Shown here piece after piece: positions 25,736-43,704 of a stretch of DNA of 64,000 nt. Origin of the DNA: Candidatus Aenigmatarchaeota archaeon (GTDB lineage: Archaea > Aenigmatarchaeota > Aenigmatarchaeia > CG10238-14 > SCSR01). Where the stretch lies: positions 94,850-158,849 of the forward strand of contig JAWBWS010000002.1 in the NCBI GenBank assembly GCA_038999725.1, given 5' to 3'. The notes below the pieces were generated by a model. It had not been told where the DNA came from. It ran no database searches and saw only the letters and a list, made by a program, of their open reading frames with translations. Positions within the stretch are counted from its first letter, which is position 1, and each line of letters begins with the position of its first letter. Made by a program: the position numbers and the translations under genes.

Positions 25736-25781
25736 AAATTTCAAACCAAACTTTCAAACATTGGAATAAAGGGAGATTTGA

Positions 25782-27434: not shown

Positions 27435-27476
27435 GTTTTTTTATTCCAACACAATAAAAACATCTTATGTTTTATT

Positions 27477-28250
27477 CTATCTCGTCATCCAATTCACAAG
27501 CCTTTCTATAATGGTGAAGTGGAATCTGGGCTTTTCCAAGAAAGGTCTTCCAGTCAACAGGCAAGCAAGCCTCTTGAACTCTATTGAAGCTGGTGAATGG
27601 GGTGAATAATTGACAACAGGCATTTTTGCAAAAATTGCTTTTGCCACATTGTTGTCTTCCGGAATTTGAACTAAGACCGGATAGCCTGTCATCTCCTCGA
27701 TCTCAGTTTTTGTAAGCTCGTAATCTTTTCTTCTAACCCTATTTACAACCACACCAATTATCTTCTTCTCCAATCTCTCAGCCAATCTTATGGTCTTCAG
27801 AGCATCGGCAACAGAAGGTAAGTTTGGGTTTGTGATCACAAGAACCTCCTCTGTCGCTTGCAAGGCTGAGGTTGACTCCCTTCCCAAACCTGCTGCTGAA
27901 TCCAAGAGGATGAAATTGATCTTTCCGGTCAAATTCAGAACAACCTCATAAAGCTTAGTGGGATCAATTCCGGTCAAATCATCAACACTCATGCTTGCTG
28001 GTATCACTTTAAACCCAAATGGATGGGGATAAATCGCATCTTTAAGCTTCGATTCTCCTTTCAAAACATCATGCAAAGTTATCGGAGCAAAGTGCATGCC
28101 CAAGTGTAAGCCCAAATTGGGTGTTGTCAGATTTGCATCAATCGCAACTACATCCTCTCCAAGCAAGCATAAGGCAGAAGCTAAGTTTGATGTTAGAGTA
28201 GTCTTTCCCACCCCACCCTTTCCTGATGTTATCAGTATTGTTCTTGTCAT
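27477..28250 (-). CDS. minD: MinD-family ATPase
   Basis: SGKGGVGKTT; IDANL; LDSAAGLG; IPEDNNV. Confidence 0.9.
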   Translation of the reverse strand: MTRTILITSGKGGVGKTTLTSNLASALCLLGEDVVAIDANLTTPNLGLHLGMHFAPITLHDVLKGESKLKDAIYPHPFGFKVIPASMSVDDLTGIDPTKLYEVVLNLTGKINFILLDSAAGLGRESTSALQATEEVLVITNPNLPSVADALKTIRLAERLEKKIIGVVVNRVRRKDYELTKTEIEEMTGYPVLVQIPEDNNVAKAIFAKMPVVNYSPHSPASIEFKRLACLLTGRPFLEKPRFHFTIIERLVNWMTR

Positions 28251-28353
28251 TCAATCAAACCTTATTTTATTTTTTATAGTTTAAAAGTTTATTGCTAAAG
28301 TTTTTGGCTTAAGAATTAAGACAAAAACTATGATGAAGATTATTTTTGTTTAA

Positions 28354-28587
28354 CTAAGGTTTTTCTTCTGGTTTATCAATGCTCTTGAAAATCATCTTGT
28401 CAAAGTTGAAAGGTTTTTTAATCTCTTGCTTCACCCTTTCAATCCAACCTTCTAGAATTATCACCGCTTCGCTAAGAGGAAATCTTTCTCCTTTTGTCTT
28501 CAGCTCAACCTGCATTTGCTTTGTCTTTTTATTTATCCTTCTCAAGATGTAAATTCCAAATCTTTGCTCTTCTATATCTTCCGGCAT
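28354..28587 (-). CDS. Hypothetical protein
   Basis: 77-aa ORF from MPEDIEEQ with plausible composition. Confidence 0.5.
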   Translation of the reverse strand: MPEDIEEQRFGIYILRRINKKTKQMQVELKTKGERFPLSEAVIILEGWIERVKQEIKKPFNFDKMIFKSIDKPEEKP

Positions 28588-28793
28588 ACTAATATCTAGT
28601 GATTGCAAACTCAAAAAGATTAAATTGGGAAACATTCAGGTAGTTATCGAAGGTTTGAGGAGATGAAATTTTTGAATTAGTAATTGAGAGAGCAACCTTT
28701 CCATTTCTTTCAATCCTTAATAATTCGGTTCTTACCGAACAAAATCTACTATCTATAGTATCGAATTGAGCAGTAGTGGAACGTCTTCGTTGC

Positions 28794-28821
28794 GACAAAC
28801 TTTCAACCTTGAAAGTTTGTC
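28794..28821. repeat. Perfect 13-bp inverted repeat
   Basis: GACAAACTTTCAA-CC-TTGAAAGTTTGTC. Confidence 0.8.
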
Positions 28822-28961
28822 AGAAAAAGAGTCTTCTCCATAAATTGGTACAAGGTGTCTCCTTGGTGATTATTTCTACAATAATTTCAATTATAGTCGC
28901 TCTTGTGCTACTCATCTCTTTCCTGTATTATTTCCCCACGCACCACCAATTCTTCTCACAG

Positions 28962-29348
28962 CTAACCTCTTTCGCAGCTAACCTCTTTAAAGGAACCAAT
29001 ATAACATCCGCTGAGTTCGGCAGAATATATGTGTCCTTCTATGTTTTTCTTTATATCACTAAGGTTAAGTTCATAACAAGAATTTTTTCTAACCCAACTC
29101 CAATTTTTTGAACAAACAGAGAATGAATAATTAAATTGCCGTGTTGATATATCAGTCAAAATCAGTTCCCCTCCATAATATCCTGAAGACTCAGAAAAAG
29201 AACCCCCCTTTACCTCAATTAATTGAGCTGTAATAACTTCTGGTTTTTCTGGTTTTACATAAGGATTAATAACAATTGCTAAAATTGTAATGGCAAGTAT
29301 AAATGTGAAATACAATTTTTTTGTATCTCCAAACGCCCCTTTACTCAT
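28962..29348 (-). CDS. Membrane-anchored hypothetical protein
   Basis: N-terminal TM and four Cys; stop lies inside a 16-nt-period direct repeat. Confidence 0.6.
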   Translation of the reverse strand: MSKGAFGDTKKLYFTFILAITILAIVINPYVKPEKPEVITAQLIEVKGGSFSESSGYYGGELILTDISTRQFNYSFSVCSKNWSWVRKNSCYELNLSDIKKNIEGHIYSAELSGCYIGSFKEVSCERG

Positions 29349-29563
29349 TTAAATTTAATTATAATTCCAAAATTTAAATATCCTAAGCTATTGGGAGTTT
29401 CATGAACACAAAATAAAGAAAAATATGGGATGTCATAATAACTTAGGTAAAGGTGTGAAACCTATAGAATTTTAAACCATAACCAAGCTTTTAAATCTTC
29501 ATAAGTTATTCGACATTCATTAAAAACATATGAACACTGGCTTGAGTTTTACAATCTTTTAAA

Positions 29564-29673
29564 TGCCCTCGGCGGGATTCGAACCCGCGACCTTCGCCTT
29601 TCTTTCATCTTTCAATCAAACCTTCTAGCATTGCTAGAAGGGCGCTGCTCTGTCCAAACTGAGCTACGAGGGC
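29564..29673 (-). tRNA. tRNA-Arg(TCT) with 35-nt intron at 37/38 (29600-29634)
   Basis: GCCCTCG/CGAGGGC acceptor; GGA D-loop; GCGCC-CT-TCT-A|intron|A-GGCGA; GCGGG-TTCGAAT-CCCGC. Confidence 0.9.
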
Positions 29674-29749
29674 TCAATACTTTTTCTTTTATTCTAAAAC
29701 AAATAAATTTTTACATAACTTAAACAAAATTGTTTAAGTAGGTGAGCGA

Positions 29750-31585
29750 ATGAGTGAAGTTCTATCACAAGCTAAAAAAGCTTTCCTGTTGGGGAATGAA
29801 GCCATAGCAAGAGGTGCTCTGGAAGCTGGTGTTGCTGTAGCTACAACTTATCCTGGAACTCCTGCTTCAGAAATTGGTGATACCTTTGCTGAAGTAGCTA
29901 AGCAAGCAGGAATTTATTTTGAGTACAGCACGAATGAAAAAGTTGCTGTTGAAGTTGCGGCTGGTGCTTCTCTTTCTGGCTTAAGATCAATAGTCTCTTT
30001 TAAAAGTTTTGGTATAAATGTTGCTTCTGACTCAATTTTCCCTTTAGCTTATACAGGAGTTAAAGCTGGTATGCTAATAGTTGTTGCAGATGACCCAAAC
30101 TGCTGGAGTTCTGCTCAATCAGAGCAAGATAGTAGACTTTTTGCAAGAATTGCCCATTTACCAATGTTAGAACCTTCTGACCCTCAAGAAGCAAAAGACT
30201 TAACAAAACTTGCTTTTGAAATTTCAGAGAAATTTGGAATTCCCGTGATTTTGAGAACAACTACAAGAGTTAGCCACATGAGAAGTTTAGTTAAGCTTGG
30301 AGAGATTAAAAAAGTTGGGAAAAAAGTTGGATTTGTTAAAGACATCGCTTTCAAAAACTATCCACCTCAAGTTATTAAAACTCATGCCAGCTTACATGAA
30401 AAACTTGAAAAAATTGAAAAATTCAACGAAAAGAGCAAGATAAATTTAATATTGAACAAAAATTTTAAAAGTAAAATTGGGGTAATAACTTCTGGGATTT
30501 CTTTCAATTACTTGATTGAAAGTTTGGAAGAACTTAACTTGAAAATTCCTGTTTTGAAAATAAGCATGACTTATCCCCTGCCTCAAAAGCTTGTAACAAA
30601 CTTCATCAAGAATTTGAAGGAAATTCTCGTTGTTGAAGAGCTCGAACCAATTCTTGAAGAAGAGGTTAAAAAAATAGCTAAAGAGGCAAACCCTAAACTC
30701 AAAGTTCATGGCAAAGACTTGCTTCCTTTTTCTGGTGAATTTAAACCAGAAATTGTGATTCAAGCTTTGGCCAAGCTTGCTAAGAAAAAAATTCCAAAAG
30801 AAATGGAAAGCAAATTTGAAATTGAAAAGATAGAAAAAAGATTTCCTCAGCTTTGTCCTGGCTGTCCTCATAGAGCAAGCTTTTGGGCAATCAAACAAGC
30901 TGTAGGCCCTGATAAAGTTTTTGCTGGGGATATAGGTTGCTACATGCTTGGAGTTTTTCCTCCAATAAGCCAACAAGATTTCTTTCTTTCAATGGGAGCT
31001 AGCATGAGTGTTTCTCAAGGAATAGAAAGAGCAACAAAACAAAAACCTGTTGTTTTTATTGGTGACTCAACTTTCTTCCATGCAGGAATTCCAGGTTTAA
31101 TAAACGCCATCCACAATAAAAGCAATTTGCTTGTTATTGTTTTAGACAATAGGACAACTGCAATGACAGGACATCAACCCCATCCTGGAGTTGCTTTGAC
31201 TGGAATGGGAGAAGAAACTAAAGCTTTGGCAATAGAGGGAATAGCTAAAGCTTGTGGTGTGGAGAATGTTAGAGTTGTGAATGCCTTCAATATTGATGAA
31301 TTCATTCAAGTTGCAAAAGAGTTTTATTCTTTGCAAGGGGTGAGTGTAATAGTTGCAAGGGGTGAGTGTAGATTGCAAACTGTAAGAAGTATGGCAAGGA
31401 GAGGAATAAAAATTCCAAAGTTTGAATTTAAAGATCAACCTGATGAAGAAAGCATAAGCAAACTTAAAGATTTTGGATGCCCTGCAATAAGAAAGGGAAA
31501 TGAAAAATTCTACATAGATCAAAATCTTTGTTGGGGTTGTGGTGTTTGTGCTCAAATATTTAGAGGAATTAAACCAAAGGTGTGA
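29750..31585 (+). CDS. iorA: Indolepyruvate:ferredoxin oxidoreductase alpha subunit
   Basis: LLGNEAIARGA; YPGTPASE; NEKVAVE; SAQSEQDSR; LCPGCPHR; GDIGCY; GDSTFFHAG; TAMTGHQP. Confidence 0.95.
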   Translation: MSEVLSQAKKAFLLGNEAIARGALEAGVAVATTYPGTPASEIGDTFAEVAKQAGIYFEYSTNEKVAVEVAAGASLSGLRSIVSFKSFGINVASDSIFPLAYTGVKAGMLIVVADDPNCWSSAQSEQDSRLFARIAHLPMLEPSDPQEAKDLTKLAFEISEKFGIPVILRTTTRVSHMRSLVKLGEIKKVGKKVGFVKDIAFKNYPPQVIKTHASLHEKLEKIEKFNEKSKINLILNKNFKSKIGVITSGISFNYLIESLEELNLKIPVLKISMTYPLPQKLVTNFIKNLKEILVVEELEPILEEEVKKIAKEANPKLKVHGKDLLPFSGEFKPEIVIQALAKLAKKKIPKEMESKFEIEKIEKRFPQLCPGCPHRASFWAIKQAVGPDKVFAGDIGCYMLGVFPPISQQDFFLSMGASMSVSQGIERATKQKPVVFIGDSTFFHAGIPGLINAIHNKSNLLVIVLDNRTTAMTGHQPHPGVALTGMGEETKALAIEGIAKACGVENVRVVNAFNIDEFIQVAKEFYSLQGVSVIVARGECRLQTVRSMARRGIKIPKFEFKDQPDEESISKLKDFGCPAIRKGNEKFYIDQNLCWGCGVCAQIFRGIKPKV

Positions 31586-31588
31586 AAG

Positions 31589-32161
31589 ATGAGGTTTAAT
31601 TTGGTTGTTGTTGGGTATGGTGGTCAGGGAGTTTTAAGCTTAGCTGAAATCATAAGCAGAGGGGCAATTGAAGAAGGTTATGAGGTAAGAGCTGTTGAAA
31701 TTCATGGTCTTTCCCAAAGAGGTGGAATGTTGCAATGTCATGTAAGGTTTGGTGAAAGAATTTTCTCACCACTTGTTAGAAAAGCTGGGGCAAATTTGAT
31801 CATAGCTTTAGATGTTTTAGAAGCTCTCAGAGCCTGTTATTATGCCAATAAGGAAACAATTGTGCTCACTGATACAAAACTTTTAACTCCAAGACCAATT
31901 CCTGAAAGACCTTTAAAGGCAAAAGATATTTTGAAGGAAATAAAGAAATTTGCAAAAGTTGAAGCTGTCGGTGCCAGTGAGATTGTTGAAAAATTGACAG
32001 GAGAAGCTACCATGAGTAATATTTTCATGTTGGGATATAGTATAAAGAAAAAGCTTTTACCAATAAAAAAGGAGAACGCTTGGAAAGCTGTCTCCCAAAG
32101 GATTAGACCACAATTCTTAGAAGCTAACAAGAAAATTTTTGAGGAAGCTTTCAAGCTGTAA
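31589..32161 (+). CDS. iorB: Indolepyruvate:ferredoxin oxidoreductase beta subunit
   Basis: GYGGQGV; EIHGLSQRGG; HVRFG. Confidence 0.94.
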   Translation: MRFNLVVVGYGGQGVLSLAEIISRGAIEEGYEVRAVEIHGLSQRGGMLQCHVRFGERIFSPLVRKAGANLIIALDVLEALRACYYANKETIVLTDTKLLTPRPIPERPLKAKDILKEIKKFAKVEAVGASEIVEKLTGEATMSNIFMLGYSIKKKLLPIKKENAWKAVSQRIRPQFLEANKKIFEEAFKL

Positions 32162-32193
32162 GATTTTTACTATGACAAAAGCAATTAAAAAAT

Positions 32194-34173
32194 ATGGTTT
32201 TTGGTTTTATGGATTCATGGGTTGTTAAAAAAGGCGAGCTCTATTGGCCTTCTGATAAGATGAAAAAACATGCATGGATCTCTGATAAGAGAATTTATGA
32301 AGATGCGTATAAAGATCCTGTAAAGTTTTGGGAAAGTTTAGCAGAGCAACTCTTTTGGTTCAAGAAATGGGAGAAAGCTTTTGTACATCAGCCACCCTAT
32401 TTTAAATGGTTTTGTGATGGAAAAATAAACATAACTTCTAATATTTTTGAAAAAAACCCGAACTGGGGAAAAATTAAAAATAAACCTGCTATAATTTGGG
32501 AACCAGAACCAATTGAAGAAAACCCAAGAATTCTCACCTACGGAGAGCTTTTCAAGCAAGTGAATAAAACAGCAAATGCTTTGAAGAAATTAGGGGTGAA
32601 AAAGGGAGATGTAGTTGGAATTTACTTACCAATGATTCCCGAAGCAATAGTTTCGATGTTGGCTTGCGCCAGGATTGGTGCCGTTCATACTGTAGTTTTT
32701 TCAGCATTTTCTCCTGAAGCTTTGAGAGTTAGGCTTCAAATGACAGAAGCAAGATTCCTGATAACTGCTGATGGATACTACAGAAGAGGAAAAATCATAA
32801 ATTTGAAAGAAAATGCTGATGAAGGTGTAAAAGAAACAAATGTGGAAAAGGTTGTAGTGGTTAAAAGAATTGGAAATCAAGTTGCTTGGAATCCTGAAAG
32901 AGATTTTTGGTGGCATGAACTTATAGAAAAAGAGAGTGAAGAGTGTGAAGCCGAGATTATGGACTCAGAAGACCTTTTATTCATATTGTATACTTCAGGC
33001 TCGACAGGTAAACCAAAAGGTTGTTGTCATGTTTGTGGCGGCTATACTGTTCAAGCTTATTGGACTGGAAAGTGGATTTTTGACTTCCATGAAAATGATT
33101 TACTTTGGTGCACTTCTGATTTAGGTTGGATTACAGGACACACATATGTATGCTACTCCCCTCTCCTAAATGGAATAACAACTTTGATTTTTGAAGGTTC
33201 TTTAGATTATCCCTCTCCTGAAAGATGGGCAGAAATAATTGAAAAATATAAAGTGACAATTTTTTATACTGCCCCAACTGCAATTAGAATGTTTGAGAAA
33301 ATGAACGGTAAAGTTGCTAAAAATTATAAGTTTAAATCTTTGAGACTCTTAGGCTCAGTTGGTGAGGTGATTGATGAGGGGGCTTGGAATTGGTACTTTG
33401 AGAATGTGGGTAAGAGAAAATGCATAATAGTTGACACATGGTGGCAGACAGAAACTGGAGGTATTCTCATAACTCCTTTACCTGGGATTGGGCCTTTCAA
33501 ACCAACTTTTACTGGTTTACCTTTCCCTGGAATTAGGGTTGATATCTTGGATGAAGAAGGCAAACCTTGTCAAGTAAACCAAGTGGGAAATCTTGTGATA
33601 TTGCCACCTTTTTCTCCTGGGATGTTTAGAGGAATTTATAGAGATCCTGAAAAATATGATGAAAGTTATTTCAGTAAATATGGTAAGGAAGTTTACCTGG
33701 CTGGGGATGGTGCTTTTAGGGATGAGAACAATTTGATTAGAATAACTGGTAGGATTGATGATGTGCTTAAAGTTGCTGGTCATAGGTTATCAAATGCTGA
33801 AATTGAAAACGCCATAAATTTACATGAGGCTGTGGTTGAATCGGCTGTTGTTGGTATGCCGGATGAAATAAAGGGGGAAGTGCCAATAGCTTTTGTTGTT
33901 TTGAAAGCTGGTTTTCGACCAAGTGAAAAACTTTCTTCTGAGCTGATTGAGCTTGTTGTAAAGAAGATTGGACCCATAGCGAAGCCTGCCAAAATAATTT
34001 ATGTTCAAGACTTGCCCAAGACGAGAAGCGGAAAAATAATGAGAAGGATAATGAAGAATTTGATAAAAAAAGAAGAAACTGGAGACATATCAACTTTAGC
34101 AAATCCTGAGAGCGTTGAAAAATTGAAGGAAATTATAAGTAGCATTTATTGCTCCAACACTAAAGCTTTTTAA
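32194..34173 (+). CDS. acs: Acetyl-CoA synthetase (AMP-forming)
   Basis: LYTSGSTGKPKG; DTWWQTETGG; GRIDDVLKVAGHRL; LPKTRSGKIMRR. Confidence 0.95.
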   Translation: MVFGFMDSWVVKKGELYWPSDKMKKHAWISDKRIYEDAYKDPVKFWESLAEQLFWFKKWEKAFVHQPPYFKWFCDGKINITSNIFEKNPNWGKIKNKPAIIWEPEPIEENPRILTYGELFKQVNKTANALKKLGVKKGDVVGIYLPMIPEAIVSMLACARIGAVHTVVFSAFSPEALRVRLQMTEARFLITADGYYRRGKIINLKENADEGVKETNVEKVVVVKRIGNQVAWNPERDFWWHELIEKESEECEAEIMDSEDLLFILYTSGSTGKPKGCCHVCGGYTVQAYWTGKWIFDFHENDLLWCTSDLGWITGHTYVCYSPLLNGITTLIFEGSLDYPSPERWAEIIEKYKVTIFYTAPTAIRMFEKMNGKVAKNYKFKSLRLLGSVGEVIDEGAWNWYFENVGKRKCIIVDTWWQTETGGILITPLPGIGPFKPTFTGLPFPGIRVDILDEEGKPCQVNQVGNLVILPPFSPGMFRGIYRDPEKYDESYFSKYGKEVYLAGDGAFRDENNLIRITGRIDDVLKVAGHRLSNAEIENAINLHEAVVESAVVGMPDEIKGEVPIAFVVLKAGFRPSEKLSSELIELVVKKIGPIAKPAKIIYVQDLPKTRSGKIMRRIMKNLIKKEETGDISTLANPESVEKLKEIISSIYCSNTKAF

Positions 34174-34206
34174 TCTTTTTTCTCCAAGAATAATTTAGTG
34201 AGTAGG

Positions 34207-34230
34207 ATGGGTGAGCGACTTCTCCTATAA
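34207..34230 (+). promoter_or_regulatory. Putative leuS leader peptide MGERLLL*
   Basis: ATG GGT GAG CGA CTT CTC CTA TAA, 42 nt upstream of the leuS ATG; TCTCCT complementary to the leuS SD AGGAGG. Confidence 0.7.
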
Positions 34231-34272
34231 GCTTAAACCCCATTTTTCCCTATTTTATTCAGGAGGCTAGGT

Positions 34273-36984
34273 ATGGTCATATCTATAGGAAATGTAAGAA
34301 AAATAGAGAAGAAGTGGCAAGCTGAGTGGGAGAGAGCTAAAGTTTTTGAGGCAAACGTCGATGAAAGTAGAAAGAAATTCTTTCTCACATTTCCTTATCC
34401 ATATGTGAATGGTACAGCCCACATAGGCCACAGTTTTTCATTTTTTAGAGTGGATTCATTTGCCAGATTTAAAAGAATGCAAGGTTTTAATGTTCTTTAT
34501 CCCCAAGGTTTTCATGCTACCGGTGAACCCATTCTTGGGACAATAGAAAGGTTAAAAGAGGGGGATGAAACTCAAAAAGAAACTTTCAAACTCTATGGTG
34601 CTAGTGATAAAGATATCCAAGCTTTCATCGAGAAGGGCCCGGTTTTTGTGGCAAAATACTGGATGAAAAAGTGGATTGAAATTCTTAAACTAGCTGGATG
34701 CTCTATAGATTGGAGGAGAACCTTTATCACTACAACCATAACTCCACAATATTCTAGGTTCATCGAATGGCAGTACAATACCTTAAGAGAGAAAGGTTAT
34801 GTGGTTCAGGGCACACACCCTGTAATCTGGTGCCCCAAATGTCAATCACCGACTGGTGATCATGATAGGCTTAAGGGTGAAGGTGAGAGTCCAATCGATT
34901 ATATCTTAATTAAATTCAAACTTGATTCTGGAGAAATTTTGCCTTGTGGTACTTTAAGACCAGAAACAACTTATGGTGTCACAAACCTTTGGATAAATCC
35001 TGAAGCAGAGTATGTTTGGGCTAAAGTTAATGGGGAAACTTGGCTATTGAGTAAAGAGGCTGTAGAAAAACTAAAAGACCAGCTTAAAAAAGTCGAAGTT
35101 TTAAGCAGTGTAAAAGGCTCGGAGCTTGTAGGAAAATATGTGGAGAATCCTGTAACAAAAGATAAAGTGATTGTTTTGCCTGCAAGCTTTGTTGATCCAG
35201 ATGCTGCTACTGGTATTGTAATGTCTGTTCCTTCTCATGCCCCTTACGATTGGATTGGCTTGCTCGATCTACAGAGAAATCCTGAGGAGGTAAAAAAATA
35301 TGGAATTGACCCAGAAATTGTGTTCAACATAAAACCAATCTCACTGATAAAAACGCCTGGACTTGAAGATCATCCTGCTATAGAGTTTTGTGAAAAGCTT
35401 GGGGTTGAAAACCAGAAAGATAGGGAAAAATTGGATGAAGCCACTTCTCAAGTTTACAAGAAAGAATTCCATCTCGGTGTATTGAAAGAAAATTGTGGAG
35501 AATATGCTGGTATGAAAGTGTCTGATTGTAAGGAGAAACTTTCAAGAGAATTTATAGAAAGAGGAATAGCTGATGTGATGTGGGAGTCTACTGGCTTAGT
35601 TATTTGCAGATGTGGAAATAAAAATCATGTTAAAATTTTGGAAAATCAGTGGTTCTTAAAATATTCTGATGAAGGTTGGAAGGAAAAAGTTAGACAGTGT
35701 ATAAAATCTATGAAGTTTTATCCAGAAGAGATAAGGAGCCAATTCCTCAACACTGTTGACTGGCTGAAAGATAAAGCTTGCACAAGAAGGACCGGTCTAG
35801 GTACTCCCTTACCCTGGGATAAAAGCTGGATAATCGAAACACTTTCTGATAGTGTGATTTACATGGCTTATTATACTATAGCTAAAGTGATAAATGAGAA
35901 GCAAGTGTCTGCTGAAAAACTTACAGATGAAGTTTTCGATTATATCTTTTTAAGTAAAGGAAATTTGGAAGATGTGAGCAAAAAATCTGGCCTAGAAAAA
36001 GAAGTTATTGAAGAAATGAAAAGGGAATTTGAGTATTTCTATCCTGTGGACTTCAGAGGTTCGGGAAAAGATCTTGTACAAAATCATTTGACCTTTTATC
36101 TTTTCCACCATGTTGCGATTTGGGAAGATTCTAAATATTGGCCAAAGGCAATTGGCGTGAATGGTTTTGTTAATGTGGAAGGAACAAAAATGAGTAAGTC
36201 CAAAGGCAATATAATACCTTTAAAAGATTTGGTGAATAAAATTGGGAGCGATTTAGTGAGAATAAATATAATCGCCTCTGCTGAAAACTTGGATGATGCT
36301 AACTGGAGAGATGAAACTGTTGCAACATATGCTTCAAAAATTAAATTCATTTCAAAACTTGTTAAAAACTTGAAAAAAGCCAAGAGAGAGGATGTGAAAA
36401 AAATTGATCTGTTGATGCAAAGTAAAATTCAGCAACATGTGAAAAAAACAACAGAAGCTTACGAAGAACTCAAATTCAGGACTGCTGTTCAAGCTGCTCT
36501 TTTTGAATTTACAAATGATTTGAAAGAATATATTGAAAGGTGTGGTGGGATTAAAAATTGTAATAAACAAATAATTTCAGAGGCTGTAAATATTTTAATA
36601 AAATTGCTCGCTCCTGTTTTGCCTCATATAGCTGAAGAATTGTGGAGTCTATTGGGAAATAGTGGTTTTGTCTGTGTTGCAAAATGGCCGGAATTTGATG
36701 AAAACAAGGTTGATAAAACTGTGGTTGAGCTGGAGCAAAACTTCAAAAAGTTAACGGAAGATATCTCTCAGGTTAAAAAACTTGCTGGTGAAAAAGAGAA
36801 AGCTTACTTTTATTTTGCCACTGAAAAAGAAATGGAATATTTTGAAGAACTTAAAAGATATTTGAAAAAGAAGTTTGGGTTTAAGAAAATTTTTGCTTTC
36901 AAGGCTTATGATGAAAGGAGATATGACCCACAAAATAAAGCTGCAAAAGCCAAATATGGTAAACCTGGGATTTACTTGGAATAA
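34273..36984 (+). CDS. leuS: Leucine--tRNA ligase
   Basis: PYPYVNGTAHIGH; TLRPET; SVPSHAPYD; GKDLVQNHL; KMSKS. Confidence 0.97.
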   Translation: MVISIGNVRKIEKKWQAEWERAKVFEANVDESRKKFFLTFPYPYVNGTAHIGHSFSFFRVDSFARFKRMQGFNVLYPQGFHATGEPILGTIERLKEGDETQKETFKLYGASDKDIQAFIEKGPVFVAKYWMKKWIEILKLAGCSIDWRRTFITTTITPQYSRFIEWQYNTLREKGYVVQGTHPVIWCPKCQSPTGDHDRLKGEGESPIDYILIKFKLDSGEILPCGTLRPETTYGVTNLWINPEAEYVWAKVNGETWLLSKEAVEKLKDQLKKVEVLSSVKGSELVGKYVENPVTKDKVIVLPASFVDPDAATGIVMSVPSHAPYDWIGLLDLQRNPEEVKKYGIDPEIVFNIKPISLIKTPGLEDHPAIEFCEKLGVENQKDREKLDEATSQVYKKEFHLGVLKENCGEYAGMKVSDCKEKLSREFIERGIADVMWESTGLVICRCGNKNHVKILENQWFLKYSDEGWKEKVRQCIKSMKFYPEEIRSQFLNTVDWLKDKACTRRTGLGTPLPWDKSWIIETLSDSVIYMAYYTIAKVINEKQVSAEKLTDEVFDYIFLSKGNLEDVSKKSGLEKEVIEEMKREFEYFYPVDFRGSGKDLVQNHLTFYLFHHVAIWEDSKYWPKAIGVNGFVNVEGTKMSKSKGNIIPLKDLVNKIGSDLVRINIIASAENLDDANWRDETVATYASKIKFISKLVKNLKKAKREDVKKIDLLMQSKIQQHVKKTTEAYEELKFRTAVQAALFEFTNDLKEYIERCGGIKNCNKQIISEAVNILIKLLAPVLPHIAEELWSLLGNSGFVCVAKWPEFDENKVDKTVVELEQNFKKLTEDISQVKKLAGEKEKAYFYFATEKEMEYFEELKRYLKKKFGFKKIFAFKAYDERRYDPQNKAAKAKYGKPGIYLE

Positions 36985-37776
36985 CTAGAATACAATTAAT
37001 GTTGACTCTATTACAGCGGCTATCACAAGCAAGATGAAAGCTGTAGCCATCATTTCAAAACTATCCCTCAGGATGAAACTGAGCTTTTCTGTTTTCCTTT
37101 TTGTAAAAGCAAGTGAAACAAGACCGCCAGAAATTCCCCCTATAAAATAGGCTAAAATTTCAAGGCTCCCATGAGGAAAGAAAGTCAAAATAGCTGAAGG
37201 AATTCCTCTGAAGCCGCCCAAGCTTTTTGCTGTCATTCCTATGGCAACAGAAAGTACGGAAGCGTTCCAAGCCAGGATAAAAATTGCCCCTGCACCAAAG
37301 AGGAATGAAAGGAGGAATGAAAGTGTAAGCACACCAGTATTGTTTATCAAGATGGTTGAGAAGGTACCACCGAATGTGGCTCTACCCCTCATCCGATTGA
37401 TTATATCGAGTTGATCTCTGAAAAGTTTTTCAGACCAATTCTCTGGTATCATCATAAAGAGGATCGTTTGAGTTAAAATCATGCCAACAAAAAACGCAAT
37501 GTAAACCATAATCACATTTCTGTGCCTCTGAAAAATGTTCATCTTCTTCAATTCTTCTGCTTTCTGTTCTAGCTTCGCTCCTTCATATCTCATGAAATCC
37601 AACATGAAGGGCATTATCCCGAAAGTTATAAAAAAATTGCTCATTAAACCTGGGGAATCGGGAAAAAGCAAGAAAGAGAGGAATAAACTTATTGTAGAAA
37701 TTATTCCACCAAGTATGAAAACCCAGAATGGTTGTTTTAGGGCAATCCTCACATTTACCAATCTTTCCAAGACCAT
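36985..37776 (-). CDS. SpoIIM/DUF95-family membrane protein
   Basis: ILINN; LAWNASV; PHGSLEI; IAAVIES. Confidence 0.88.
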   Translation of the reverse strand: MVLERLVNVRIALKQPFWVFILGGIISTISLFLSFLLFPDSPGLMSNFFITFGIMPFMLDFMRYEGAKLEQKAEELKKMNIFQRHRNVIMVYIAFFVGMILTQTILFMMIPENWSEKLFRDQLDIINRMRGRATFGGTFSTILINNTGVLTLSFLLSFLFGAGAIFILAWNASVLSVAIGMTAKSLGGFRGIPSAILTFFPHGSLEILAYFIGGISGGLVSLAFTKRKTEKLSFILRDSFEMMATAFILLVIAAVIESTLIVF

Positions 37777-37821
37777 TCTCTCTATAAAAAATTAATTTTT
37801 AAAAACATTAATCTCTTAAGT

Positions 37822-38271
37822 ATGAAAAAGTCTTCTTTAATCGGAATTATATTAATTTTGCTAATGCTAAGTTCCACTTTTATTTACTTCATTTCTTCTT
37901 TTCTTTTTCAACCAACACTGCCGGAAGGAAATATAGTTGATTATGAGCTAGACATTCAACAGAAGAATTTGGTCCTAAAGCAAGGCAGGGTTTTAATGGA
38001 ATTTTTTTATAACAAGAATTGTACTGAATGCGAAGAGAAAATTTCTTTTCTTGAGTCTTTTGCAAATGAGTATAAAGACAAAACTTTCTTAGAAAAGATT
38101 TCAGTAATCGAGGGTAAACCTAAACTTCACTTCATAGGATTTAACGTGAGCGAAAACAGGATTTACCTTCAAGAAAGGTTCTTAGAGGAGGAAAATATAA
38201 CAGAAGAGAATACTAAGAAGGTTTTATGTGAAATCATGCTTTATCCACCTGTAGAATGTGTTGGTGTTTAA
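37822..38271 (+). CDS. Membrane-anchored protein with thioredoxin-like CxxC
   Basis: N-terminal TM; FFYNKNCTEC. Confidence 0.6.
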   Translation: MKKSSLIGIILILLMLSSTFIYFISSFLFQPTLPEGNIVDYELDIQQKNLVLKQGRVLMEFFYNKNCTECEEKISFLESFANEYKDKTFLEKISVIEGKPKLHFIGFNVSENRIYLQERFLEEENITEENTKKVLCEIMLYPPVECVGV

Positions 38272-38304
38272 AATTGCTGAGAAAAATCGTAGAAGGCAAA
38301 TAAC

Positions 38305-38901
38305 ATGAAAATTATTGGTATAGATCTTGCTGGTAGTGAAAAACAAGCCACAGGGTTTTGTTTTATGAACGAAAATTTGAATTGCGAAACTCTCACCCTA
38401 CACTCAGATAGAGAAATAATTGAAGAAACACTCAAGAGAGATCCTGATATAATAAGTATAGATGCTCCTCTAAGTTTACCAAAAGATAGAAAAAGTCTTG
38501 AAGAAAGAAGAGGTTCACATTTGAGAGCATGTGATAGAGAGCTTTTGAAAATGAAGATAAAATTTTTTCCTCTAACTCTTGGACCTATGAGAAGTTTGAC
38601 GAAAAGGGGAATAAAATTGAAAAAATTTTTTGAGAGAAAGGGATATAAAGTGATAGAAAGTTTCCCAGGAGCAGCTCAAGACTTATTGGGTATAGGTAGA
38701 AAACAAAAAGGTTTGGAAAAATTGAGAAAGGGTTTGATGAAATTTGGAATTAAAGGAGATATAGAGAAAAAGAAAATAACAGATGATGAATTGGATGCTA
38801 TCACCTCAGCTTTAGTTGGGAAGTTGTTTCTGGAAAATAATTATATTGCTATAGGAGATCCGGAAGAAGGTTTAATCATTTTACCAAAAACAAAGAAATG
38901 A
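38305..38901 (+). CDS. DUF429 family (RNase H-like) protein
   Basis: IGIDLAG; IDAPLSLP; LRACDREL; IESFPG; DELDA. Confidence 0.9.
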   Translation: MKIIGIDLAGSEKQATGFCFMNENLNCETLTLHSDREIIEETLKRDPDIISIDAPLSLPKDRKSLEERRGSHLRACDRELLKMKIKFFPLTLGPMRSLTKRGIKLKKFFERKGYKVIESFPGAAQDLLGIGRKQKGLEKLRKGLMKFGIKGDIEKKKITDDELDAITSALVGKLFLENNYIAIGDPEEGLIILPKTKK

Positions 38902-38906
38902 GTGAT

Positions 38907-39065
38907 TCACAAGGCTTTTAATTTTTCTTCCATTTCTTTTATTTCTCTTTGAAATCTTTCAATAACTCTAGGTAAGTCTTTATCTTCTACTCTGAGAATT
39001 TTACTAGCCTCTCTTAATATCTTTTCTTTTTTCTTGAGCTTTTTCCACTCTTTCTTTGAAATCAT
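38907..39065 (-). CDS. 52-aa microprotein resembling the AlaRS C-terminal helical segment, not in ORF track
   Basis: MISKKEWKKLKKKEKILREASKILRVEDKDLPRVIERFQREIKEMEEKLKAL; SD-like GGGAG; overlaps the alaS 3' end in another frame. Confidence 0.7.
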   Translation of the reverse strand: MISKKEWKKLKKKEKILREASKILRVEDKDLPRVIERFQREIKEMEEKLKAL

Positions 39066-41382
39066 TTCTCTCCCTCTTCTTCAATTCTTTTCTCAATTTC
39101 TTCCATTTTTCAAAGAGTTCTCCAACAGCTTTAACAATTTCCTCTTCTTTTACATTCAATTTCTTTGCAACTTCATTTAATATCTTTTCTTTTTCTCTTA
39201 AGTATTCTAGAGCAACCTCTCCAGCTTTAATTTCAATTCTCACCAAACCATCAGCAATTCTCTTCGTCCTCAAAATTTTTATCAAACCAACTTCTCTTGT
39301 GTTATCGTTGTGTAGACCTCCACAAGCTTCAACATCAAACCCCTTTATCTCAACAATTCTCAATTTCTTCGAAGGTATATAGCCACCAGCATAAATTCCA
39401 AAACCATATTTCTTTTCAGCTTCTCCCCTCTCCATGATGAACTTCTTTATTGGCAAACCTTTTTGCACAATCATGTTGGCAAGATTTTCTATTTTTTCTT
39501 CTTCATCTTCACTTAGAGCTTCATAGTGCGTGATATCGATTCTTGCTTTTTCTTCTGTCTTTTCTGCACCATATTGATGAACATGTTGCCCTAAGATTTT
39601 CTTTACTGCTCCACTTATTATGTGAATTGCATCATGATGTTTTTTCAAAATTTCTCTCCTTCTCTTATCAACTTTACACTTGACAATTTGCCCCTCCCTC
39701 AAATCACAACTCTCAAGTTGATGAACTACCACAGAATTTGCCTTTATCACATCTACAACTCTATTTTCACCAATATAGCCAGTATCATGTTCTTGACCGC
39801 CAGAAGTTGGATAAAAAGCTGTTCTATCTAACACAACAAAGTTTCCAGAAACTTTCAAAACCTTTGCTTTAAAGTTTATTGTATCACCATAGTAAAGAAT
39901 TTTTGTTTTCGGTAAGTTGGAAATATCTAGAGCTATCTTTCTTTCTTCTTTTTTTTCAACCATGTGTCTTTCTGTAACTTTCTTATAAAAATCTGAAGAA
40001 ACTTCCATCCTAAGCTGTTCAGGGGTGATTCCTTCAGAATCATAAAGTTTTATCAATTCTTCTTCTGTTGGTCTTCTTTGAGCAAACATTTGAATGATTC
40101 TCTTTGCTCTCTCTTTTGTGTTTTTATATCTTTTTACCTCGATTTCTAAAATTTTCTCTATTTCTTCTTTTTTCTCTTCAAGTTCAGGGAACATTTTTTT
40201 CAAATAATCTATGTGCCAATTTGCAACATCCTCTATCTTTAAGTTCCATCCAAACTTATCGATGAAGCTCAAGGATCTTCTTAAAATAACTCTCAAATTA
40301 TAACCACCGGCAACATTGCTAGGTAAGCCACCATCTGCAATTGCAAAAACTAGAGCTCTTGCATGATCTGCTATTGCATATAGAGCATGTAAAGGTTCAA
40401 TTGTCTTTTGTAACTCCTCCACAGAAGTTTTAAGCGTGTTGGCAAGGAAAGATAAAACTGGTTTGAAGTCTGCGAACTCATCAATATCAATTCTTCCTGA
40501 AATTTTTGAGAATCGAACAAAAAATTTCTCATCATACTTTATTCCACAAGCCTTCTTCATTTTTTCCAAAACTGGACCGAAAACTGCATCATAGCAGGTG
40601 GGTGTGCCTTGAGTTATCCAAGTAAGTCTTTCCAATCCTGCGCCCATGTCGATTATCTTTTCCCTAGCTTCTTTATAGTTTTCAGGTGTTCCCAAGAATT
40701 CGGTAAAGACAGCATTGCCCAGTTCTATCCCCTGAACATGATATTCCAAGCTGCTTCCAAAAGCACCATAACCAAGCCAAGCATCTTCTATGAAATTTAT
40801 CTCTTCTGGCTTTATCCCAAAAACTTTTGTGAGAAGCTCGAAATCAAGCTCTATACATTTATCTTTCCAATAACCTTTTTTGCCATCGAAAAGGGAAGTT
40901 TGTTGGACCATCCCAAAACATGTAAAACTCTTCGAATTCAAGCCAACATTTGGTATATCATTGAAGCGTAAACAAGGTTGTAATAATATTGTGGGGTTTG
41001 CGGGAAATTCCCATTCAAGATTGTTATTTTCACCAATCCTGTAAAAGTTTACTATCCCTGCAATCGTGAAGTAAAGTGGATACCACCTACAAACTGTGGG
41101 ATAGCGCTCAAGTGCTATATGTCCACTATCAACAAAAAATTTCTGAATTCTTTTCCAAGTCTCAAAAATATCCCAACTTTTCTTGGTTGGAGGTTTACCT
41201 ATGAAGTCGTAAGTCCTACAACTAGAATCGTTGCAAGTTTCTTGCTTCTTGATTGACCAAAAATACTTACCACATTTACTACATTGCCTTCTCTCGAAGC
41301 CTAATTCATCGAAAATCTTAACCTTCCAAAAGCGGTTTGGATTTTTTTGAAATTCTTGAATCAATTCTTTCTTTGTTCTCAT
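39004..41382 (-). CDS. alaS: Alanine--tRNA ligase (no C-Ala/DHHA1 domain)
   Basis: QPCLRFND; ELGNAVF; DMGAGLER; IADHAR; FYPTSGGQ; editing motifs HHDAIH and CGGLH. Confidence 0.96.
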   Translation of the reverse strand: MRTKKELIQEFQKNPNRFWKVKIFDELGFERRQCSKCGKYFWSIKKQETCNDSSCRTYDFIGKPPTKKSWDIFETWKRIQKFFVDSGHIALERYPTVCRWYPLYFTIAGIVNFYRIGENNNLEWEFPANPTILLQPCLRFNDIPNVGLNSKSFTCFGMVQQTSLFDGKKGYWKDKCIELDFELLTKVFGIKPEEINFIEDAWLGYGAFGSSLEYHVQGIELGNAVFTEFLGTPENYKEAREKIIDMGAGLERLTWITQGTPTCYDAVFGPVLEKMKKACGIKYDEKFFVRFSKISGRIDIDEFADFKPVLSFLANTLKTSVEELQKTIEPLHALYAIADHARALVFAIADGGLPSNVAGGYNLRVILRRSLSFIDKFGWNLKIEDVANWHIDYLKKMFPELEEKKEEIEKILEIEVKRYKNTKERAKRIIQMFAQRRPTEEELIKLYDSEGITPEQLRMEVSSDFYKKVTERHMVEKKEERKIALDISNLPKTKILYYGDTINFKAKVLKVSGNFVVLDRTAFYPTSGGQEHDTGYIGENRVVDVIKANSVVVHQLESCDLREGQIVKCKVDKRRREILKKHHDAIHIISGAVKKILGQHVHQYGAEKTEEKARIDITHYEALSEDEEEKIENLANMIVQKGLPIKKFIMERGEAEKKYGFGIYAGGYIPSKKLRIVEIKGFDVEACGGLHNDNTREVGLIKILRTKRIADGLVRIEIKAGEVALEYLREKEKILNEVAKKLNVKEEEIVKAVGELFEKWKKLRKELKKRERNDFKERVEKAQEKRKDIKRG

Positions 41383-41420
41383 ATTTTTTCACTAACTCGT
41401 CAATAAAGACATTTTTGATT

Positions 41421-41807
41421 CTAGTTTAAATATGGTTCTTGCGCTCTTAACTCATTCACTAAAACTTCTATGAAGCTCTTACCCAATTTTCTCATTTCTT
41501 CTATTGTTTTTCTCATTCGCCGTAATCTCCTAGTTCTTACATATCCTCTCAAAATTTTCCTTTCATATTTTTCAACTTCAATTGGAAAATCTTCTTTCTC
41601 TATTTCATCAGGATTGTTTGACAACATCTCTATTATAATTCTTACATGGTTGATTTTATAGATATTTTTATCGGCATGATTTCTCATATCATCGGCACAA
41701 CTATTTACTGGTATCAAGTAGGGTTTTTTTAAACGATTTATGTAAACTTTGAGTTTTCTTGGATTGGTTTTCATATTGAATAAAAAAACATTAAAGTTTA
41801 AATTCAT
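41421..41807 (-). CDS. Hypothetical protein (start possibly at internal MKTNP)
   Basis: ORF between the TctA-like gene and alaS on the same strand. Confidence 0.5.
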   Translation of the reverse strand: MNLNFNVFLFNMKTNPRKLKVYINRLKKPYLIPVNSCADDMRNHADKNIYKINHVRIIIEMLSNNPDEIEKEDFPIEVEKYERKILRGYVRTRRLRRMRKTIEEMRKLGKSFIEVLVNELRAQEPYLN

Positions 41808-43045
41808 TTCTCAAACATCGAAAGAACCAAGGGATTTAAACCTGCAAAAAATAAAATGCTTGGAATTAAAAGCACGCCCATACAATAACTTCTTCTCACT
41901 TCAAAATTGGCACAAAGAAGGCCGATAGCAGTTGAAATTGAAAGGATGATAACACCTATAATTCCTGTCCAAATAAAAGTCAAAATAAAAATAAAGCTTA
42001 TAACCGAAAGTGTTAAAGTTTTGTAATCTAGCTTGATTAGAATTTTTGATATTTGTTTAGCAAGGTAAAGTGTGAGTAAAGCTGAAATCCCTGAAACAAA
42101 ACAAATTGTTCCGAGCAAAAGTAAGACATCAAAAAAGCTTAGCTCTGTTAAAATTTGTTGGATTGCAACACTTGAACCACTTCTTGGATTTGAAACAAGG
42201 TAAAGGGAGATGAGAGAGAAAACTTCGTTACCAACATTTATTCCCGAAAGGGTAATAAGGAAACTTCTTGCATCCCCTCTTCCAGTAAGATATTGCATCA
42301 TAACAGCGGCTTCTGAAATCCCGACTGCAGGTAAGAAGCCTACAATAATCCCGGCAATTGAGCCCAAGAAACTTGACTTTAGAATTTCTTTTGTTGAGAT
42401 TTTAAGAGAAAAATCTTCTTTTTGTTCAGGAATTTTTGAAGTTTCAGAAAAGCTTATTATCAAAGTGCTCAAACCAAACATTCCAGTCAAAACAGGAAAG
42501 AGAATATGTTGTGAAGGTAAAAGTTGGGAATTCAAAACAAGTAGGCCAAAAATTCCTGAAAGCAAAATTATGAAAGTTGAAAAAATCATCTTTTTTGGCT
42601 TTTTCTCAGAAAGAATCATGAAAGCTACAACAGCAATTAGGGCAAGGTGTATGTATGGTCTCGTGAGCTTGTAGAAAGATGCAAAGTAGGGTGAAAGAAA
42701 TGCTATGAGGAAAAGGCTGAAAATCAAAGAGCCTATGCCACCTATGACTGTAAGTTTAACTGCCTCATACCCCCTTCCTTCTAGAAGAAGTCTATGACCC
42801 GGTAAAACTGCTAAAGTAGTGCCCTCTTCAGGTGCACCGATGAAAATTGATGGAATAAAATTAAAGAATATCTCACTCATCGCTGCAGAAACAATAAGAA
42901 CTACCAAATGGTGAGGGGGTAAGTTAAAAAAAGTTGAAAGAGAGAAAAGCAGAGGTAATAAAGTGTTGATATGCATGCTCGGCATCAAACCTCCAAATAA
43001 ACCTATTAAAATTCCGAGGATTGAAACAAGAATAAAACTAAACAT
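41804..43045 (-). CDS. TctA/DUF112-family membrane protein
   Basis: GLMPSMHIN; FIPSIFIGAP; VLPGHRLLLEGRG; NPRSG. Confidence 0.9.
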   Translation of the reverse strand: MFSFILVSILGILIGLFGGLMPSMHINTLLPLLFSLSTFFNLPPHHLVVLIVSAAMSEIFFNFIPSIFIGAPEEGTTLAVLPGHRLLLEGRGYEAVKLTVIGGIGSLIFSLFLIAFLSPYFASFYKLTRPYIHLALIAVVAFMILSEKKPKKMIFSTFIILLSGIFGLLVLNSQLLPSQHILFPVLTGMFGLSTLIISFSETSKIPEQKEDFSLKISTKEILKSSFLGSIAGIIVGFLPAVGISEAAVMMQYLTGRGDARSFLITLSGINVGNEVFSLISLYLVSNPRSGSSVAIQQILTELSFFDVLLLLGTICFVSGISALLTLYLAKQISKILIKLDYKTLTLSVISFIFILTFIWTGIIGVIILSISTAIGLLCANFEVRRSYCMGVLLIPSILFFAGLNPLVLSMFEK

Positions 43046-43046
43046 A

Positions 43047-43454
43047 TCACTTCAAACTATCTAAGATTTGAATATCACTCGGCCTTCTGGGAACAATTTG
43101 AAGTTGACCTTTGTATTCACTTACAATCCCGGTAATTCTCACACTCCTACCCTTTCTTAAGTCGTATTGAGTTATACCATTGTTACTCAACTTGTTGGCT
43201 AAACTAGAAAAAATTGGAACTTCTATTTTTGCATCATCATCTACTAAAGTTAAGAAAATATGACCTGCCTCGTGCTTTCTAACATAAGAAATTTTGCCAG
43301 TTGTAGAGATCAGCTTACCAATTAATTTTGAATCTATTTTACTTATTCTTATCTCGGAGGGGGAAACTGCTGAAACTGAAAAATAGAGGAAAATTAAACC
43401 TGTTAATGAAACTAAGATACAAGTTATTATAAAAATTTTTTTCTTAATTTCCAT
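43047..43454 (-). CDS. Membrane-anchored OB-fold protein
   Basis: TM; GHIFLTLVDD; VRITGIVSEYKGQLQIVP. Confidence 0.85.
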   Translation of the reverse strand: MEIKKKIFIITCILVSLTGLIFLYFSVSAVSPSEIRISKIDSKLIGKLISTTGKISYVRKHEAGHIFLTLVDDDAKIEVPIFSSLANKLSNNGITQYDLRKGRSVRITGIVSEYKGQLQIVPRRPSDIQILDSLK

Positions 43455-43704
43455 GCTTAAGTTTGGGTAGAATATTATTCATATAGGTTTAGAACTACAA
43501 GGGTGAGTTAAATTACTTTTCAAAACCTTTCATGTTGAGGTAAACAATTGTGGCTAACAAACCACTGAAAGCTGTAGTTATTATTGAAAATTAGAACTTG
43601 ATATTAGAAGAAGTGCAAAATAAACCCGAAGGTTTTCTACTATAAATCCGGAATTTCTCCAAAAATTTTAAAGCTAAACCCATAAGTACACTAAAATAAA
43701 AAAC

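Follow-up and report, generated by a model that had tools for sequence, protein, structure and literature searches.

Organization of the leuS leader

The upstream region of the leucyl-tRNA synthetase (LeuRS) gene leuS was investigated in a hot-spring Candidatus Aenigmatarchaeota genome of 730 kb (G000). The window, the whole 64,000-nucleotide (nt) stretch of DNA that was analysed, is part of contig C2 of this genome, and coordinates given without a contig refer to it. The acetyl-CoA synthetase gene acs (32194-34173; Pfam) and leuS (34273-36984) are separated by 99 nt, which hold a short leader with a 7-codon open reading frame (ORF) and a Shine-Dalgarno (SD) sequence. Orthologues of leuS were present in 40/40 relatives. 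The features of the locus were as follows.

34162-34174, plus strand: the leader's B recognition element (BRE)/TATA-like promoter element, made up of AAAGC and a T/A-rich 8-mer behind it, with the TATA-like AAAGCTTTTTAA at 34162-34173
34197-34206, plus strand: predicted transcript 5' end and 10-nt 5' untranslated region AGTGAGTAGG, placed from promoter geometry, with a partial SD-like GTGAG inside
34207-34230, plus strand: putative zero-frame sensor ORF MGERLLL* (7 codons plus TAA), ATG at 34207 and TAA at 34228-34230, kept in 5/5 species
34210-34214, plus strand: SD-like GGTGA within codons 2-3, with complementarity to the 16S 3' end (..GGATCACCTCCT) and a candidate stimulator of frameshifting
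34219-34225, plus strand: candidate slip site, CTT 34219-34221 (P site), CTC 34222-34224 (A-site Leu sensor), next base C
34220-34270, plus strand: +1 frame entered by the proposed slip, FSYKLKPHFSLFYSGG, with the stop TAG at 34268-34270, 2 nt before the leuS ATG
34243-34252, plus strand: pyrimidine tract able to pair with the leuS SD, a local sequestering hairpin in the RNAalifold consensus fold (94% of cells paired)
34261-34266, plus strand: leuS SD AGGAGG, 6 nt before the leuS ATG at 34273, kept in 5/5 species (GGGAG in one)
34273-36984, plus strand: leuS, 903 amino acids, with Pfam tRNA-synt_1, Anticodon_1 and the LeuRS editing domain

The TATA-like AAAGCTTTTTAA overlaps the stop of acs. 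In the small ORF, a CGA codon is followed by CTT, CTC and CTA. An earlier annotation made from the letters of the window alone, called here the sequence-only reading, had described MGERLLL* as three different tandem Leu codons after CGA, downstream of the TATA-like element, and this was present as described; the leuS SD and the complementary TCTCCT at 34221-34226 were both found as well. The duplex of GGTGA with the 16S 3' end was calculated at -8.3 to -10.2 kcal/mol.

Promoter geometry was derived from positional counts across the G000 genes. A/T 8-mers ([AT]8) had their maximum between -31 and -28 relative to the start codon, and SD signals were weak, so most G000 messages look leaderless; counts with an SD regular expression were uninformative (183/649 versus 171/649 in the control). 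In 12 other G000 genes, GCTT followed by four A/T lay at -34 to -30 from a leaderless start. Applied to the element at 34165, the G000 geometry predicts a transcript 5' end near 34197, 10 nt before the small ORF, and thus a leuS leader of about 76 nt with a conserved SD, which would be unusual for G000. Several G000 leaderless promoters carry a common palindromic GCTTAAATATTTAAGC-like box, and AAGCTT occurs in 1016 copies in the 730 kb of G000, about four times the estimated base-composition expectation. A role of AAGCTT palindromes as paired operator sites was rejected, because the 1016 copies had equal density in coding and non-coding DNA.

Conservation within the genus

Scanning of 370 genomes of the phylum (170 genera) with a 41-nt pattern of 36 specified positions showed that the block AGTGAG..GCTTAAA occurred with 0 mismatches in five genomes, representing five species of one genus (G000, G001, G002, G004, and G007), and in a single copy per genome. 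These species were nearly unchanged from the TATA-like element to GCTTAAA. At the four-fold sites of leuS in the same five genomes, 30/184 were invariant and pairwise identity was 0.47-0.62, which means that synonymous sites were saturated. The leader block is under selection. When 12 intergenic regions in window 24000-44000 were compared, five short gene-proximal ones had no detectable conservation, and the conservation of the block equalled that of the RNA genes in neighbouring intergenic regions.

Similarity to the relatives begins at the promoter element; BLAST matches in three genomes start at window 34160-34162. The block remains beside leuS even where 2.9-4.1 kb have been inserted between acs and the block. 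Three more genomes of the genus are without the block, and leuS lies directly behind acs there; in other genera leuS is mostly leaderless-looking. In exact scans of genome and metagenome contigs, nothing appeared beyond the four relatives already known and a single contig matching G002 exactly, and contigs of runs X4-X7 contained no further variant of the leader.

The predicted peptide of the small ORF is MGERLLL in four species and MGERLLV in one, and the synonymous positions of codons 2-6 are invariant. Two positions vary inside the small ORF; one of them is the third base of TCN, the codon that would newly enter the A site after the proposed slip, which encodes Ser in all five species. Indels of 6 and 3 nt occur in the variable 3' half of the leader, so the +1 frame is kept. 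Alignment of the relatives' leuS leaders had been proposed as a check in the sequence-only reading: the upstream ORF was kept in the five species, and no covarying loop-SD pairs were found.

A 27-codon ORF on the minus strand across the block and box C/D features were read by eye and rejected, the ORF because the variable positions are non-synonymous in its frame. Runs of at least three identical residues occur in 9/266 short upstream ORFs of G000, with LLL at 3 loci. The other residue-run upstream ORFs of G000 were not cognate to their genes: FFF precedes a glycosyltransferase gene and III precedes the HisRS gene.

Leader family and cognate codons

A covariance model built from the five leuS leaders was run on 69 genomes of the family and gave weaker matches before leuS of genus g34 and before other genes. 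The upstream ORFs of leuS in g34 are MEFGEQVLQL* (G142) and MKLGGQVLKL* (G138). Their ATG is displaced upstream by two in-frame codons (6 nt), and CTC is found again as the third codon behind GGTGRG. The tandem run of three Leu codons, which had been taken as a feature of the leader, is not what is conserved: it is present in four species, is reduced to a run of two by Val at codon 7 in G007, and is not tandem in g34 (..VLQL*, ..VLKL*).

The 5'-module pattern AGTGAG-NNNG-ATG-GGTGA gave 20 matches in the family genomes versus 5 for the reversed control, and a slightly wider pattern gave 56 versus 8 in the 370 genomes. A TATA-like stretch lies about 30 nt upstream of the AGTGAG-NNNG-ATG module. 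Among 49 distinct pattern matches with an ATG, 33 had an ORF of at most 30 codons and 16 were the starts of ordinary longer ORFs. Downstream genes were named by NCBIfam or Pfam, apart from G096 thrS and G093 proS, which were named from N-terminal likeness; the N-terminus of G096 is nearly identical to that of the G034 ThrRS. The family cassette consists of GGTGR, 4 nt, a slippery codon of the form XYY, and a final codon cognate to the downstream gene. The leaders and their sixth codons were as follows.

LeuRS leaders, genus of G000: CTC
ThrRS leaders, G106, G026, G034, G096 and G000 itself (contig C1): ACA
ProRS leaders, G014, G141, G036 and G093 (behind a tRNA-binding protein gene): CCA
AsnRS leaders, G106 and G104: AAC
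HisRS leaders, G013 and G060: CAC
HisG and HisRS leader, G202: CAT
ValRS leader, G262: GTA
Leader of a Cys/Met pyridoxal phosphate (PLP) enzyme, G132: TGC

The putative sensor codon was cognate at codon 6 in 23/24 leaders. Counted by lineage (amino acid × genus), with the five leuS leaders of the G000 genus as one lineage, the codon matched in 15/16 lineages versus 2.75 expected, and 0/1,000,000 shuffles reached 15. The sole mismatch was G133 hisS, with Lys at codon 6 and GTT CAC at codons 10-11. GGTGR was found in 22/24 first cassettes; an asnS leader has GGTGT, and G133 has none at that spacing. Leaders whose downstream gene had no assignable amino acid were excluded from the cognate count (G077, Cys; G196, Trp; G018, G113 and G189, Lys; G059, Ser), as were matches resembling chance or ordinary small genes. 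As defined by these sequence patterns, the leader family is present across the phylum before leuS, thrS, proS, hisS, hisG, asnS, valS, and the Cys/Met enzyme gene. The leuS leader has the family's cassette in frame with an ATG near the predicted 5' end, and its +1 frame reaches the main start. The proposal of the sequence-only reading that a translated leader senses Leu-tRNA is thus backed by the cognate codons of the related leaders (15/16 lineages).

G000 has a second leader of this kind at G000:C1:242141-242234, with the ORF MGECQTLS*, ACA as the sixth codon, and thrS 93 nt downstream (NF003068, 583 bits). The +1 frame of this leader runs open through 27 codons to a TGA that overlaps the thrS GTG. 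At asnS in G106 and G104 and at hisS in G013, the sensor ORF and the synthetase gene are separated by a small AbrB/MazE-like ORF; the one in G106 is read in the sensor's +1 frame and terminates on the asnS start. Sensor-like leaders for Lys (AAG) or Ser in G018, G113, G189, and G059 precede, or are +1-fused to, ArsR-type helix-turn-helix (HTH) or uncharacterised proteins. Behind the Lys leaders, G018 has an ArsR-type HTH protein, G113 an uncharacterised protein, and G189 one with a weak GNAT match. The proteins behind the Lys and Ser leaders are possibly regulators whose synthesis is restricted to conditions in which one tRNA is uncharged. Two leaders in which TGG (Trp, G196) or TGC (Cys, G077) comes after CTT precede proteins of 384 and 112 amino acids, respectively, without a Pfam or NCBIfam family, which suggests a link of these proteins to Trp or Cys.

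Slippery codon, +1 frame and tandem cassettes

The codon before the sensor codon was XYY in 24/24 leaders and 16/16 lineages, against a G000 codon background of 0.339. The codons seen were CTT, GTT, TTT, ATT, CAA, GAA, CGG, and CCC. CTT is followed by C in the leuS leader, and by T in the Cys leader of G132 and the Trp leader of G196. The zero-frame ORFs of the 24 leaders have 7-23 codons, with 7 in the leuS leader. GGTGA lies 4 nt before codon 5, and the distance from GGTGA to the start was also 4 nt in 24/50 G000 cases. Pairing of GGTGA with the anti-SD at this initiation spacing would place codon 5 at the P-site position and the sensor codon in the A site.

The +1 frame ended at or near the main start. 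In 15/15 unfused leaders with a single cassette, the +1 stop fell within -14 to +19 nt of the main start, versus 2/15 for the +2 frame; counted by lineage, the values were 10/10 and 1/10. Seven of these 15 frames overlap the main start exactly, and the longest was open for 87 codons. In the leuS leader the +1 frame ends 2 nt before the leuS ATG; its stop in the sister species is either 5 nt ahead of the ATG or overlaps with it (ATGA). The frame from GTG 34211 is open up to the leuS start in all five species. In 5/24 leaders the +1 frame is fused to the main protein, namely HisRS (G060, G133), HisG (G202), the Cys/Met enzyme (G132), and an HTH protein (G018).

A further four leaders, G013 hisS and G026, G034 and G096 thrS, have a short first +1 frame and would reach the main frame only after a second +1 slip. 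The second cassettes are read in the +1 frame and have no ATG: GGTGG-4 nt-GTT-CAC in G013 (L121, 1440-1510, minus strand) and GGTGA-4 nt-AAA-ACA in G026 (L114, 1460-1510, minus strand). For G034 and G096, the +1 peptides (GQGECKT..) point to second cassettes of the same type. The frame after the second slip would be that of an AbrB-like/HisRS ORF, or of an ORF ending on the thrS start codon. Such tandem cassettes could act as an AND gate.

Proposed mechanism

Window 34162-34272 is probably a dedicated promoter with a leader of about 76 nt, which would sense charged tRNA-Leu by a +1 frameshift at a hungry codon. This reading is built on the observed conservation, leader family, cognate-codon and slippery-codon rules, GGTGA spacing, +1-frame geometry and tandem cassettes; the 5' end, translation of the small ORF, the slip, re-initiation on leuS and the direction of control would then be as follows. 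A ribosome would start at ATG 34207, which lies some 10 nt into the predicted transcript. Once codon 5 (CTT) has moved into the P site, GGTGA would lie behind it at the SD-to-start distance, with CTC in the A site. With ample Leu-tRNA, reading would continue to termination at TAA 34228-34230, 42 nt before leuS. With scarce Leu-tRNA, the A site would stay empty and the peptidyl-tRNA would slip one base forward, from CTT to TTC. The shifted ribosome would read the 16-codon +1 frame across the leuS SD and stop at the TAG 2 nt before the leuS ATG. Its passage would open the SD region, translation would restart on leuS, and more LeuRS would be made.

Several points weigh against this reading. The leuS +1 frame FSYKLKPHFSLFYSGG itself has two Leu codons, so a Leu-starved ribosome could stall again. 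Re-pairing after the slip would be imperfect for CGG and CCC. The leader is rich in T and C, which makes open frames cheap, and the +2 frame of the G000 leader is open for 34 codons. The GTG at +4 in ATGGGTGA is necessarily in the +1 frame and could start that frame without a slip; the second cassettes without an ATG and the leaderless geometry in g34 make such a start less likely. An SD-like frameshift stimulator in archaea was not found in the accessible part of a review of archaeal recoding (PMC8211752). Coverage of the family was incomplete: 20/23 further matched places were retrieved, leaving out G308:C29, G323:C97, and G323:C102, and several pattern matches have no assignable downstream gene (G077, G196, G113, G189, and G059). 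The leuS leaders of the G000 genus are kin and not independent, hence their count as a single lineage.

Extended to the family, the evidence leads us to lean, a little less firmly than for leuS alone, towards a portable archaeal cassette (GGTGR, 4 nt, slippery codon, exchangeable sensor codon) that would serve as a general gauge of tRNA charging by a +1 slip. The slip would lead either onto the start of the matching synthetase gene or directly into the protein (HisG, HisRS, the Cys/Met enzyme, an ArsR-type regulator), and tandem cassettes would combine two gauges as an AND gate. The cassette would be a counterpart, in DPANN archaea, of bacterial T-boxes and attenuators.

Alternative explanations

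The sequence-only reading had favoured translational attenuation by a stalled ribosome: a ribosome waiting on the Leu codons would cover a pyrimidine run that otherwise pairs with the leuS SD, and so would free the SD with no frameshift. Pairing of TCTCCT with AGGAGG was seen in 28/30 cells over the five species, with a duplex of -7.1 to -8.1 kcal/mol in 5/5; the cognate-codon rule fits any ribosome-based sensor; and there is a bacterial precedent, as the accessible text of one preprint describes ribosomes stalled on Cys-rich short ORFs that block structures sequestering the ribosome-binding site (10.1101/834739). However, the complementarity was at chance level. Duplexes with the SD of -7.8 kcal/mol or lower were formed by 8.4% of random non-coding 15-mers, and some such site was present in 540/1248 random 60-nt non-coding stretches. 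No two-sided change was found for the proposed loop-SD pseudoknot, and a G in G007 weakens the pairing and is uncompensated. The nearer pyrimidine tract pairs with the SD equally well or better. In the other family members the sensor codons (ACA, CCA, CAC, AAC, GTA) are not anti-SD-like pyrimidine tracts, so an anti-SD mechanism cannot be general.

Analysis of RNA structure gave no support to stalling control. The folding energy of the leader from the predicted 5' end was close to that of shuffles (z -0.5 to +0.7), and z reached -2.0 only when upstream DNA was added. RNAalifold predicted a 5' hairpin enclosing the small ORF and a second hairpin with the pyrimidine tract paired to the SD; 97% of cells paired, which was not above shuffles, because most columns never vary. 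For the hairpin of the tract at 34243-34252 with the SD, pairing was likewise not above shuffles and was weak at 65 °C. The predicted leader folds had -0.4 to -4.3 kcal/mol at 65 °C and were nearly melted. Covariation in the leader stems of the five species was not significant at any pair. Two of the stems claimed earlier, AGTAGG/CCTATT and ATGGG/CCCAT, paired in only 55% and 68% of cells across the five species; the third, TGAGC/GCTTA, never varies, so it is always kept and gives no information on pairing either way. Structure alone does not explain the invariance of the leader. The stalling model leaves unexplained the XYY codon, the fixed GGTGR spacing, the +1 end on the start codon, and the in-frame fusions. 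Release of the SD by a stalled ribosome is therefore unlikely: the conserved GGTGR, the 4 nt, the slippery codon, the single Leu codon and the +1 frame fit a frameshift better.

Somewhat less likely again are two overlapping small ORFs with separate starts, the ATG in frame 0 and the GTG four bases later in frame +1. The +1 ORF, coupled to the main gene, would then represent either a normal leader ORF or the real N-terminus, and the frame-0 ORF would only modulate it by ribosome occupancy, with no slip. Such an arrangement agrees with the GTG present at +4 in the +1 frame of every ATGGGTGA module, the long ORF of the fused leaders can be read from the GTG, and the AGTGAG upstream could act as a weak SD. 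Neither the fixed location of a cognate codon in frame 0 nor the preceding XYY codon would be accounted for, and the second cassettes of G013 and G026, with no ATG nearby, still lead into the main ORF frame. In g34 the ATG lies 30 nt after the start of the TATA element, which is a leaderless geometry, whereas the GTG would lie 10 nt inside the transcript without an SD.

The invariant synonymous positions in codons 2-6, which indicate constraint at the nucleotide level, the direct repeat GTGAGCGA-N5-GTGAGCGA in three species, and conservation as high as that of the neighbouring intergenic RNA genes would also suit an operator on RNA or DNA for a protein such as LeuRS itself or a transcription factor, or else a small structured RNA; in either case the small ORF would be incidental. 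This is improbable, since it cannot explain how the sixth codon tracks the amino acid of the downstream gene in other genomes; in addition, the core occurs once per genome and has no Rfam match. Mimicry of tRNA-Leu was rejected, with no local similarity above shuffles to the four typical tRNA-Leu genes; one doubtful ARAGORN tRNA-Leu call shares 11/12 bases with the leader (shuffle fraction 0.017). Co-evolution of LeuRS with the leader was also rejected, since LeuRS showed neither an indel nor a fixed residue specific to the clade. Termination at an intrinsic site downstream of the small ORF was rejected because T-runs are not conserved, a 5-T run occurring in 1/5 leaders.

Least probable of all, and hardly credible, is a T-box-like RNA that works without being translated, its fixed specifier codon binding the anticodon of uncharged tRNA by direct pairing. 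A single specifier at a fixed distance from a conserved module does change with the downstream synthetase. Against this, conservation extends over only about 40 nt, in which there is no element reading the tRNA 3' end, T-boxes gave no Rfam match under gathering or E-value cut-offs, and the specifier always shares its frame with the ATG and is followed by a stop, even where the ATG has moved by exactly 6 nt. The +1-frame geometry would have no role.

Comparison with known systems

The closest parallel to the proposed +1 slip is the autoregulatory programmed +1 frameshift of bacterial prfB (release factor 2), which, in the accessible part of one paper, has a short ORF, an SD-like stimulator, CTT (CUU_U), and a slow UGA stop in the A site (PMC5009743). 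The leuS leader shares with prfB an early, short zero-frame ORF whose end closely follows the shift site, a CTT shift codon that could re-pair by G:U in the +1 frame, and an A-site codon that would be slow to decode, depending on the activity of the regulated product. A candidate for the SD-like stimulator just 5' of the shift site is GGTGA, and in several relatives the functional product would lie in the +1 frame (HisG, HisRS, the Cys/Met enzyme, the HTH protein). In contrast to prfB, with its UGA stop and release factor, the A-site codon of the leuS leader is the sense codon CTC, read by a tRNA that LeuRS charges. The leuS +1 frame does not encode the enzyme and ends at its start, so the coupling would be by re-initiation. 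Furthermore, GGTGA lies at the initiation-like spacing of 4 nt, the leaders are archaeal, and one cassette is reused with various codons, sometimes in tandem.

In Ty1, again as given in the accessible part of the source, the P-site CUU of CUU_AGG_C slips +1 when the aminoacyl-tRNA of the next codon is scarce (PMC5009743). The leuS leader likewise has a P-site CUU beside a hungry codon. Whereas Ty1 sets a product ratio through a rare tRNA, the hungry codon of the leuS leader matches the regulated gene, and through this match it would work as a sensor.

The leuS leader is distinct from LEU elements, classical attenuators and T-boxes. Like the actinobacterial LEU element, it has an upstream ORF whose Leu codons are able to pair with the SD of the gene that follows. 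It differs in preceding leuS in Aenigmatarchaeota instead of leuA in Actinobacteria, and apparently lacks a conserved pseudoknot. For the LEU element upstream of leuA, the authors, in the accessible part of their paper, doubted attenuation by a leader peptide and favoured a protein (PMC1262725).

Bacteria use T-boxes and leader-peptide attenuators, and the E. coli pheST synthetase operon has a leader-peptide attenuator, pheM. To our knowledge, little is established of how archaea match the expression of synthetase and amino-acid genes to tRNA charging. The leuS leader shares with attenuators such as pheST/pheM and, in the accessible text of one preprint, the mycobacterial Cys short ORFs (10.1101/834739) a short, presumably translated ORF with cognate codons. 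In both, ribosome speed would report the supply of aminoacyl-tRNA. The leader differs from attenuators in having no terminator/antiterminator pair, one fixed sensor codon instead of a run, and an output through a second frame.

The T-box riboswitch of Gram-positive bacteria binds tRNA directly and is untranslated. The family shares with T-boxes the use of one module with an exchangeable specifier codon before synthetase and amino-acid genes. Rfam matched no leader family to the leuS leader: only chance-level matches were returned for 34100-34330 at E up to 10.

No description of such a sensor was found in the literature on archaeal leader peptides, upstream ORFs of synthetase genes, and hungry-codon frameshifting. 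Regulatory +1 frameshifts are absent from the accessible part of the 2021 review of archaeal recoding, where a single cellular -1 frameshift is listed alongside viral cases and a suggested Mg-chelatase case (PMC8211752). If the proposed +1 frameshift is true, it would be a simple sensor definable by sequence and searchable in any archaeal genome, and the first sense-codon analogue of the prfB circuit. It would also predict which genes respond to which amino acid, including the uncharacterised genes behind the Trp, Cys, Lys, and Ser sensors.

Other features of the window and genome

Over the whole window, Rfam matched four tRNA genes only, at 5821-5921, 5991-6077, 29564-29673, and 52155-52264. 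They are 87-110 nt long and apparently intron-bearing, and none of them was called by ARAGORN at default settings. The 16S rRNA match at G000:C4:64551-66904 is 2354 nt long versus a model of 1478 positions, so the gene probably holds one or more introns. Two other intergenic blocks of the window are conserved in sister genomes, at 28356-28590 (81-86%) and at 38902-39003 (86-94%). Read by eye, the block at 38902-39003 is coding-like on the minus strand and is possibly an uncalled small gene or a C-terminal extension.

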